A stretch of 64,000 bases of DNA from assembly GCF_013167455.1 (NCBI RefSeq), contig NZ_CP038328.1, one strand, 5' to 3'. Shown here piece after piece: positions 57,201 to 60,200 of the stretch. Made by a program: the position numbers. Every line of letters starts with the position of its first letter. Position 1 is the first letter of the stretch. The DNA comes from Escherichia coli O157:H7. GTDB lineage: Bacteria > Pseudomonadota > Gammaproteobacteria > Enterobacterales > Enterobacteriaceae.

Positions 57201-60200
57201 GCAAAACTGACATAAATCTCCAGAGATGTGTTCAGGAGTTAGAAAGATTATTTCTTCTATTCTAGACAAATCCCCCTCTGATTGACAGCATCACTGACCA
57301 ATCGCAAAGATTGCTAAGGCTGCTTATGGCAGGGAGATAAGGATGGTCGATACAGAAATTTGGCTGCGTTTAATGAGTATCAGCAGCTTGTACGGCGATG
57401 ATATGGTCCGTATAGCTCACTGGCTGGCAAGACAGTCGCATATTGATGCGGTTGTATTGCAGCAAACAGGGCTTACATTGCGGCAGGCACAACGCTTTCT
57501 TTCATTTCCGCGGAAGAGTATCGAAAGCTCACTTTGTTGGTTGGAGCAACCCAACCATCATTTAATCCCTGCGGACAGCGAATTTTATCCTCCTCAACTT
57601 CTGGCGACGACAGATTACCCCGGTGCACTGTTTGTTGAAGGAGAACTGCACGCGCTGCATTCATTTCAGCTTGCCGTAGTGGGGAGTCGGGCGCATTCAT
57701 GGTATGGCGAGCGATGGGGACGATTATTTTGCGAAACTCTGGCGAAGCATGGAGTGACAATTACGAGTGGACTGGCGCGTGGAATCGATGGTGTAGCGCA
57801 TAAAGCAGCCTTACAGGTAAATGGCGTCAGCATTGCTGTATTGGGGAATGGACTTAATACCATTCATCCCCGCCGTCATGCCCGACTGGCTGCCAGTCTG
57901 CTTGAACAGGGGGGCGCTCTCGTCTCGGAATTTCCCCTCGATGTTCCACCCCTTGCTTACAATTTCCCACGAAGAAATCGCATTATCAGTGGTCTAAGTA
58001 AAGGTGTACTGGTGGTGGAAGCGGCTTTGCGTAGTGGTTCGCTGGTGACAGCACGTTGTGCGCTTGAGCAGGGGCGAGAAGTTTTTGCCTTGCCAGGTCC
58101 AATAGGGAATCCGGGAAGCGAAGGGCCTCACTGGTTAATAAAACAAGGTGCGATTCTTGTGACGGAACCGGAAGAAATTCTGGAAAACTTGCAATTTGGA
58201 TTGCACTGGTTGCCAGACGCCCCTGAAAATTCATTTTATTCACCAGTGAACCGCCCCGGGAATCCTGGAGACTAAACTCCCTGAGAAAGAGGTAAACAGG
58301 ATGACTAAAAATACACGTTTTTCCCCCGAGGTCCGTCAACGAGCAGTTCGTATGGTTCTGGAAAGTCAGGGCGAATATGACTCACAATGGGCGGCAATTT
58401 GTTCCATTGCCCCAAAGATTGGCTGTACACCAGAGACTCTGCGTGTGTGGGTTCGTCAGCATGAGCGGGATACCGGGAGTGGTGATGGTGGACTCACCAC
58501 CGCTGAACGTCAGCGTCTGAAAGAGCTGGAACGTGAAAATCGTGAACTGCGCCGCAGTAACGATATCCTTCGCCAGGCTTCCGCTTATTTTGCGAAGGCG
58601 GAGTTCGACCGCCTCTGGAAAAAATAATGCCGCTGCTGGATAAGCTGCGTGAGCAGTACGGGGTCGGACCGGTATGCAGTGAACTGCATATTGCCCCGTC
58701 AACGTATTACCACTGTCAGCAACAGCGACATCATCCTGATAAACGCAGTGCCCGTGCTCAGCGCGATGACTGGCTGAAGAGAGAGATACAGCGCGTATAC
58801 GATGAAAATCATCAGGTGTACGGTGTGCGTAAAGTCTGGCGCCAGTTGTTACGCGAAGGTATCAGGGTGGCCAGATGTACAGTGGCGCGCCTCATGGCGG
58901 TTATGGGACTTGCCGGTGTTCTCCGGGGTAAAAAGGTCCGTACTACCGTCAGCCGGAAAGCCGTTTCCGCAGGCGACCGCGTAAACCGTCAGTTCGTGGC
59001 AGAACGTCCTGACCAGCTGTGGGTGGCTGATTTTACTTACGTCAGCACATGGCAGGGCTTCGTCTATGTGGCGTTCATCATTGATGTGTTTGCCGGATGT
59101 ATCGTGGGGTGGCGAGTCTCATCGTCTATGGAAACGACATTCGTGCTGGATGCACTGGAGCAGGCGTTGTGGGCCCGTCGGCCGTCCGGCACAGTCCATC
59201 ACAGTGATAAAGGTTCTCAGTATATATCACTGGCCTATACGGAGCGACTAAAAGAAGCAAAACTGCTGGCATCAACAGGGAGTACAGGTGACTCGTATGA
59301 CAACGCGATGGCGGAGAGCATCAATGGTCTTTACAAAGCGGAGGTAATACACCGTAAGAGCTGGAAAAACCGTGCAGAAGTGGAACTGGCCACACTCACG
59401 TGGGTGGACTGGTATAACAATCGACGATTGCTGGGAAGGCTGGGTCATATCCCTCCGGCAGAAGCAGAAAAAGCTTATTATGCTTCCATCAGAAACGATG
59501 ATCTGGCAGCCTGAGTTCACAGATAAAACACTCTCCAGGAAAACCGGGGCGGTTCACCAGATCAGGAAGACGTGGCATTGCCATTTCCTGAGCTCCTGGC
59601 TAACGTAGGAGATGAGGTAACACCTGTTGACGTCGTCGCTGAACGTGCCGGCCAACCTGTGCCAGAGGTAGTTACTCAACTACTCGAACTGGAGTTAGCA
59701 GGATGGATCGCAGCTGTACCCGGCGGCTATGTCCGATTGAGGAGGGCATGCCATGTTCGACGTACTAATGTATTTGTTTGAAACCTATATTCACACAGAA
59801 GCTGAGTTGCGTGTGGATCAAGACAAACTTGAACAGGATCTTACCGACGCAGGATTTGATCGAGAAGATATCTACAATGCCCTGCTTTGGCTGGAAAAGC
59901 TTGCGGATTATCAGGAAGGACTGGCAGAACCGATGCAACTGGCCTCTGATCCACTCTCCATGCGTATTTATACCCCTGAGGAGTGTGAAAGACTGGATGC
60001 CAGCTGTCGTGGTTTTCTGCTTTTCCTTGAGCAAATTCAGGTGCTTAACCTTGAAACCCGTGAAATGGTGATAGAGCGAGTGCTCGCGCTGGATACCGCA
60101 GAGTTCGACCTGGAAGACCTGAAATGGGTAATCCTGATGGTGTTGTTCAATATTCCGGGCTGCGAAAATGCGTACCAGCAAATGGAAGAATTACTCTTTG

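Follow-up and report, generated by a model that had tools for sequence, protein, structure and literature searches.

An IS629 insertion in the dprA gene of Escherichia coli O157:H7, with the predicted consequence for the DprA protein

The stretch of 64,000 nucleotides of E. coli O157:H7 analysed here (contig NZ_CP038328.1 of assembly GCF_013167455.1, referred to as the window) contains a dprA (smf) gene which is interrupted by a complete insertion sequence of the IS629/IS1203 type, called IS629 below. Very probably, a copy of IS629 jumped into dprA on the chromosome of an ancestral E. coli O157:H7 strain, the repair of the staggered cut resulted in a 4-bp duplication of CCAG, and the insertion was passed down vertically within a small sub-lineage, with a DprA protein that would be either unstable or uncoupled from ComM. 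The predicted product of the interrupted gene consists of 301 native residues and 9 residues encoded by the insertion sequence. By analogy to the DprA proteins studied so far, the retained SAM and Rossmann-fold domains would be involved in single-stranded DNA (ssDNA) binding and RecA loading, and the lost winged helix would be the part which recruits the branch-migration helicase ComM in Gram-negative bacteria. Recombination of the transformation type would then be expected to be lost in part, a complete loss being more than has been demonstrated.

The inserted element and the reconstituted dprA gene

The dprA gene begins with an ATG at position 57343, and its stop codon ends at 59781. The element inside it was delimited by direct reading and ends with 5'-TG...CA-3' (TGAACC...GGTTCA), the left end being TGAACCGCCCCGG and the right end CCGGGGCGGTTCA; the spans of both gene and element were exactly those given in the original prediction. 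The terminal inverted repeats pair at 22 of 25 positions (1-13 and 17-25), in agreement with the imperfect 25-bp repeats described before. The 27-nt left end of the element was identified once in the 64-kb window, compared to no match in 100 shuffles. The coordinates of all features are collected in Table 1.

Table 1. Features of the interrupted dprA locus, with positions in the 64-kb window.
Feature	Position	Strand	Remarks
dprA 5' fragment	57343-58246	+	codons 1-301 and first base of codon 302; SAM_SMF and DNA_processg_A (Rossmann-fold)
Target-site duplication CCAG, left copy	58243-58246		frame restored only by 4-bp removal
IS629 (IS3 family, IS51 group), complete	58247-59556	+	1310 bp; same orientation as dprA
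Left terminal inverted repeat (IRL)	58247-58271	+	begins with TG; 22/25 complementary to IRR
orfA	58301-58627	+	108 aa; HTH_Tnp_1
ALIL pseudoknot	58582-58698	+	Rfam RF01497, positions 1-117, full length; covers the orfA/orfB overlap
orfB	58627-59514	+	295 aa from its own ATG; rve/DDE integrase core; frame -1 with respect to orfA
Right terminal inverted repeat (IRR)	59532-59556	-	final bases CA
Target-site duplication CCAG, right copy	59557-59560		CCAG single in the intact allele
dprA 3' fragment	59561-59781	+	rest of codon 302 to codon 374 and stop; winged-helix domain
smg (DUF494)	59753-60226	+	29-nt overlap of its start with the dprA 3' end; first downstream gene open to polarity

The two reading frames of the element, orfA in the 0 frame and orfB in the -1 frame, overlap in TAATG, and both were found to be intact, as had been predicted. 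A -1 slip on the A6 run at 58619-58624 was computed to give an open OrfAB fusion of 404 amino acids. A product of 404 residues has also been called in another assembly with the same insertion, GCA_003368385.2, and in the RefSeq relatives the transposase carries the annotation "programmed frameshift". The ALIL pseudoknot, a frameshift-stimulating RNA in IS3-family elements, was identified with 120.9 bits at an Rfam gathering score of 50. On the protein level, OrfB alone reached 312.9 bits with the NCBIfam model NF033516 (transpos_IS3; cut-off 160), with Pfam rve listed for the product, and OrfA matched the N-terminal portion of the NCBIfam IS3 transposase model. The length in the range of about 1.2-1.55 kb, the TG...CA repeats, the 0/-1 reading frames, the DDE profile and the short target duplication place the element in the IS3 family. 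As judged by its matching ends, OrfA, OrfB, the A6 slip site and the ALIL pseudoknot, the element appears intact and is presumably still mobile.

Over its 1310 bp, the element shares 100% identity with copies from many O157:H7 genomes, among them EC4115, TW14359 and SS17 and genomes which have served for IS629 studies. Its identity to a copy from phage JLK-2012 (JQ347801.1), which was named IS629 by the depositors, is 99.5%. About 20 near-identical IS629 copies are present per O157:H7 genome. Together with the IS3 profile and the ALIL match, these identities support the predicted assignment as an IS629/IS1203-type element, to which either of the isoform names IS629 and IS1203 may apply. IS629 has been described as a 1.31-kb element of the IS51 group in the IS3 family and as the commonest insertion sequence in O157:H7 (PMC10758439), and its target duplications comprise 3-4 bp (PMC3271280). 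When compared to the IS629 (isoform IS1203) of O157:H7, the element in dprA has the same length, the same ends with imperfect repeats, the same 0/-1 reading frames, the ALIL pseudoknot and a duplication in the range of 3-4 bp.

A total of 904 nt of dprA precede the element, which places the break between the first and second bases of codon 302 (Asp; the preceding codon 301 codes for Pro) and refines the split at codon 301 that had been reported originally. The reading frame is broken at 58246/58247 and resumes after 59560. Excision of the element together with 4 bp results in 1125 nt with 374 codons and a single terminal stop, whereas excision together with 3 bp leads to a frameshift with 6 stops. 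The 374-aa frame expected from the joining of both fragments was obtained in this way, and all 1125 nt of the rejoined gene agree (100% identity) with dprA from strains Sakai and EDL933 and from at least 40 other O157:H7 genomes among the matches listed. A clean and recent insertion, as proposed before, is supported by the sequence comparison, because the reconstituted dprA is free of secondary decay, the element does not differ from its sibling copies and both CCAG copies of the duplication match perfectly. In its interrupted form, the dprA reading frame extends 9 codons into the element (VNRPGNPGD) and terminates at a TAA at 58273-58275, which gives the open reading frame of 310 amino acids.

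The last 4 bases of the element (TTCA) are identical to the 4 bases upstream of the left CCAG, forming an 8-bp direct repeat, TTCACCAG, located at 58239-58246 and at the right junction through 59560. Recombination or microhomology-mediated end joining between the two copies of this repeat would restore wild-type dprA exactly. Enterohemorrhagic E. coli (EHEC) O157 encodes an IS-excision enhancer (IEE), which promotes the excision of IS629 and has an end-joining activity on microhomologies (PMC9943667). In O121:H19, IEE-mediated excision of an insertion sequence brought back the function of lacZ (PMC9397093). By analogy, the insertion in dprA is potentially reversible by IEE-promoted excision.

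Predicted consequences for DprA

For the reconstituted DprA, the Pfam domains SAM_SMF (residues 1-65), DNA_processg_A (68-274) and DprA_WH (311-357) were identified, which corresponds to the Gram-negative architecture. In the interrupted gene of the window, the winged helix is cut off from the remaining DprA domains. The 5' fragment alone scored 540.5 bits with the NCBIfam DprA equivalog model PRK10736 (cut-off 495), covering residues 1-301 of 374, and the 3' fragment matched positions 307-374 of the same model. The alignment of Streptococcus pneumoniae DprA (PDB 3UQZ) to E. coli DprA covers residues 80-288 and ends there, and that of Rhodopseudomonas palustris DprA (3MAJ) runs via a gapped, poorly conserved linker to residue 359. 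Because the first alignment stops at residue 288 and the second crosses the linker, the insertion is assigned by these alignments to the interdomain linker, with only the winged helix removed and both the SAM and the Rossmann-fold domain kept. The motif LLELELAG (residues 342-349 of E. coli DprA) is matched letter for letter at the aligned place in the 3MAJ winged helix and is located wholly downstream of the break.

The role that the C-terminal winged helix plays was described in a study from 2025, in which the domain was found to be typical of Gram-negative DprA proteins and to co-occur with ComM (PMC12012524). The winged helix binds ComM directly and recruits this helicase for branch migration (PMC12012524). 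In Vibrio cholerae, point mutants in the winged-helix interface showed the phenotype of a comM deletion; their presynaptic function was kept, and transformation was not abolished, unlike in a dprA deletion (PMC12012524). For Helicobacter pylori, epistasis with a comM deletion was shown for a C-terminal deletion of DprA, and in both V. cholerae and H. pylori the loss of the winged-helix interaction resembles a comM deletion in phenotype and not a dprA null (PMC12012524). It is only in species other than E. coli that DprA has been established to bind ssDNA, load RecA and recruit ComM (PMC12012524, PMC3950713). The truncation in O157:H7 resembles the V. cholerae and H. pylori winged-helix/ComM-interaction mutants in the loss of the winged helix and the retention of the SAM and Rossmann-fold domains. 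However, those mutants were engineered in naturally transformable hosts and have measured phenotypes, whereas the allele described here is a natural truncation by an insertion sequence with a foreign tail of 9 amino acids.

The original prediction that the insertion should abolish DprA function was overstated, because the SAM and Rossmann-fold domains survive and mutants in the winged helix phenocopy a comM deletion. On the basis of these comparisons, the truncated DprA is likely to be ComM-uncoupled or unstable rather than a proven null, and the allele would encode a DprA uncoupled from ComM or, in the case of an unstable truncated protein, amount to a null.

A complete loss of all DprA function, by degradation or misfolding of the truncated protein, corresponds to the original prediction and has a clearly less than even probability. 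A protein can become unstable through a foreign tail of 9 residues and a missing domain, both dprA fragments are annotated as pseudogenes in RefSeq, and the C-terminal domain of H. pylori DprA is required for efficient transformation (PMC12012524). The truncated protein, however, retains all residues which are homologous to the fully functional S. pneumoniae DprA (to about residue 288), the break falls within the poorly conserved linker between the Pfam domains, and presynaptic function persisted in the V. cholerae point mutants.

Just 3' of the element, an AGGAAG precedes, at a distance of 2 nt, a GTG in the dprA frame at 59572 (window 59564-59574). As judged from its position, this GTG could in principle allow the translation of a free winged-helix fragment of 69 amino acids and preserve the translational coupling into smg. 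It is unlikely, though conceivable, that the insertion created a natural separation-of-function allele, in which a stable "Gram-positive-style" DprA with two domains would keep ssDNA protection and RecA loading and lose ComM recruitment, in which the winged helix would possibly be made as a separate peptide from GTG 59572, and which precise reversion would turn into a reversible switch. The truncated product does share the SAM and Rossmann-fold architecture with the two-domain DprA of S. pneumoniae (3UQZ). However, the DprA of S. pneumoniae arose in evolution as a protein lacking the winged helix, in a host without the Gram-negative ComM helicase, whereas the truncation in E. coli is accidental.

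E. coli dprA has been listed among the conserved competence-regulon orthologues with Sxy-dependent CRP-S promoter sites (PMC1635313). When the region upstream of dprA in the window was inspected by eye for such a site, a single TCGCA half-site-like motif was the only one seen. To our knowledge, E. coli dprA has no known phenotype, and we know of neither a dependence of E. coli on the DprA pathway under laboratory conditions nor a demonstrated DprA-dependent transformation in this organism.

The genes downstream of dprA

The genes yrdD, tsaC and aroE follow smg on the same strand with short gaps, and the element has the same orientation as these four genes. With the overlap of smg and dprA, this arrangement would be compatible with a main effect of the insertion on the downstream genes, either by polarity on smg-yrdD-tsaC-aroE or by transcription originating in the element, for which the insertion was perhaps selected. 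A scan of the region between orfB and smg revealed no convincing strong-stem terminator. Against it, a consensus scan for sigma-70-like promoters on the + strand of 57150-60900, with the right end of the element included, gave no hit, an absence which is uninformative by itself. Any polarity is tolerated, because the carriers of the insertion were isolated from different sources, times and places. In the unrelated E. coli strain NCTC11121 (NZ_LR134220.1), moreover, an independent IS3-family insertion with an ALIL pseudoknot is located at 3843-5056 between smg and yrdD, which suggests that the dprA-smg-yrdD stretch simply tolerates insertion sequences. A predominantly downstream role is rated as improbable. 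The insertion in NCTC11121 appears to change the 3' end of smg, with 165 compared to 157 codons.

Distribution and significance of the insertion

A 300-bp probe across the left junction was searched against 5426 complete E. coli genomes. The junction was identified at 100% identity in only three of them, namely the O157:H7 strains ECP19-598 (USA), 17B6-2 (cattle, Ohio) and G5295 (USA), a rarity in line with a recent origin. In all three carriers, RefSeq annotates two dprA pseudogene pieces which flank an IS3 family transposase with an "AL1L pseudoknot". By comparison, dprA is present in one stretch covering at least 80% of the gene in 5422 of the 5426 genomes, and it is intact in ECP19-2498, which belongs to the same ECP19 strain series as ECP19-598. 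NCTC11121 was considered as a fourth carrier of the junction and was rejected, since its dprA is intact and its own insertion lies between smg and yrdD. The three carriers are mutually identical over the 64 kb matching the window, and the window differs from them at 2 positions (one 1-bp deletion and one substitution), in accordance with the O157:H7 background that had been suggested from the element. The window therefore represents a fourth O157:H7 genome, very closely related to these three.

The exact truncated product of 310 amino acids was identified on at least 65 contigs (111 index blocks) from NCBI and Logan assemblies. One of the assemblies with this product, GCA_000193955.2, shares 6.9 kb with the window without any difference. 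The same protein cluster contains further members of 301 and 304 amino acids; 301 is the length of the native portion, and a member of this length may be expected if short-read contigs broke at the element. Because the exact truncated protein was assembled independently on many other contigs, the insertion is genuine and marks a minor sub-lineage of O157:H7. A misplacement of the repeat into an intact dprA during assembly, for which the number of near-identical IS629 copies as a classic source of misassembly and the 1-bp homopolymer deletion in kefG of the window as a possible sequencing error might be cited, is effectively refuted by the occurrence of the same junction with the perfect 4-bp duplication in three genomes that were closed independently, by its presence in numerous draft assemblies from NCBI and Logan, and by the fact that a misplaced repeat would not produce a target-site duplication.

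In two assemblies with the same dprA insertion, substitutions inside the element were identified, at the equivalent of window position 58342 in GCA_003368385.2 and at the equivalents of 58626 and 58632 in GCA_012488985.1. These one to two substitutions represent either a real divergence within the sub-lineage or a collapse of IS copies in short-read assemblies.

Several other features of the window were recorded. In kefG (about 24849-25402), the T-run at 24989-24994 consists of six T in the window and of seven T in the three O157:H7 relatives. The shorter run splits the gene into open reading frames of 63 and 121 amino acids, and the 63-aa KefG fragment was found on three short Logan contigs only; the deletion represents a rare frameshift specific to the strain or else an error of the source assembly in sequencing the homopolymer. 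The sole base substitution in the 64 kb is located in codon 101 of slyD at window position 27814, where GAC in the three carriers is changed to GAG, with a predicted exchange D101E. The gene frlD, coding for fructoselysine 6-kinase (2048-2833, minus strand), contains an internal stop at codon 111 and is annotated as a pseudogene in RefSeq in all three related O157:H7 genomes; the inactivation is therefore an older, shared one. Two expected housekeeping RNAs were also identified, namely the Alpha operon ribosome-binding-site leader at 48353-48464 (Rfam RF00140, 102.7 bits) and the 16S rRNA gene, of which the 5' 537 positions are present at 63454-64000 before the gene runs off the window end.

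IS629 in E. coli O157:H7 is said to have been catalogued by Ooka in 2009. In the work of Rump from 2011, 47 IS629 sites were catalogued, and the main text contains no mention of dprA as one of them (PMC3271280). A full-text literature search and the O157 comparative papers, covering main texts, returned no paper which describes an IS629 insertion in dprA/smf. The interrupted allele is already present in public annotation, and both the element and its target gene are known. In the features compared with the catalogued IS629 of O157:H7, the element itself is no different, and the insertion site alone differs. The inactivation of stx2 subunits, of O-antigen genes and of lacZ (in O121:H19) by IS629 comes about through this element as well and by an identical way of interrupting a gene, whereas dprA, unlike the other genes hit by IS629 in O157 and in E. 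coli that produce Shiga toxin (STEC), is a target without a known phenotype in E. coli. The finding is an ordinary IS629 insertion polymorphism, and the lack of a paper on this site among those searched is no reason to regard it as novel in kind.

Polymorphisms of IS629 sites already serve in the typing of O157. The insertion in dprA, present in the three closed genomes and on the further contigs, can be used as a marker for one O157:H7 sub-lineage. Since no dprA phenotype is known in E. coli, the practical and conceptual consequences are small. As a natural allele without the winged helix, it is ready-made for asking whether the winged helix, and with it the recruitment of ComM, plays any role in E. 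coli.
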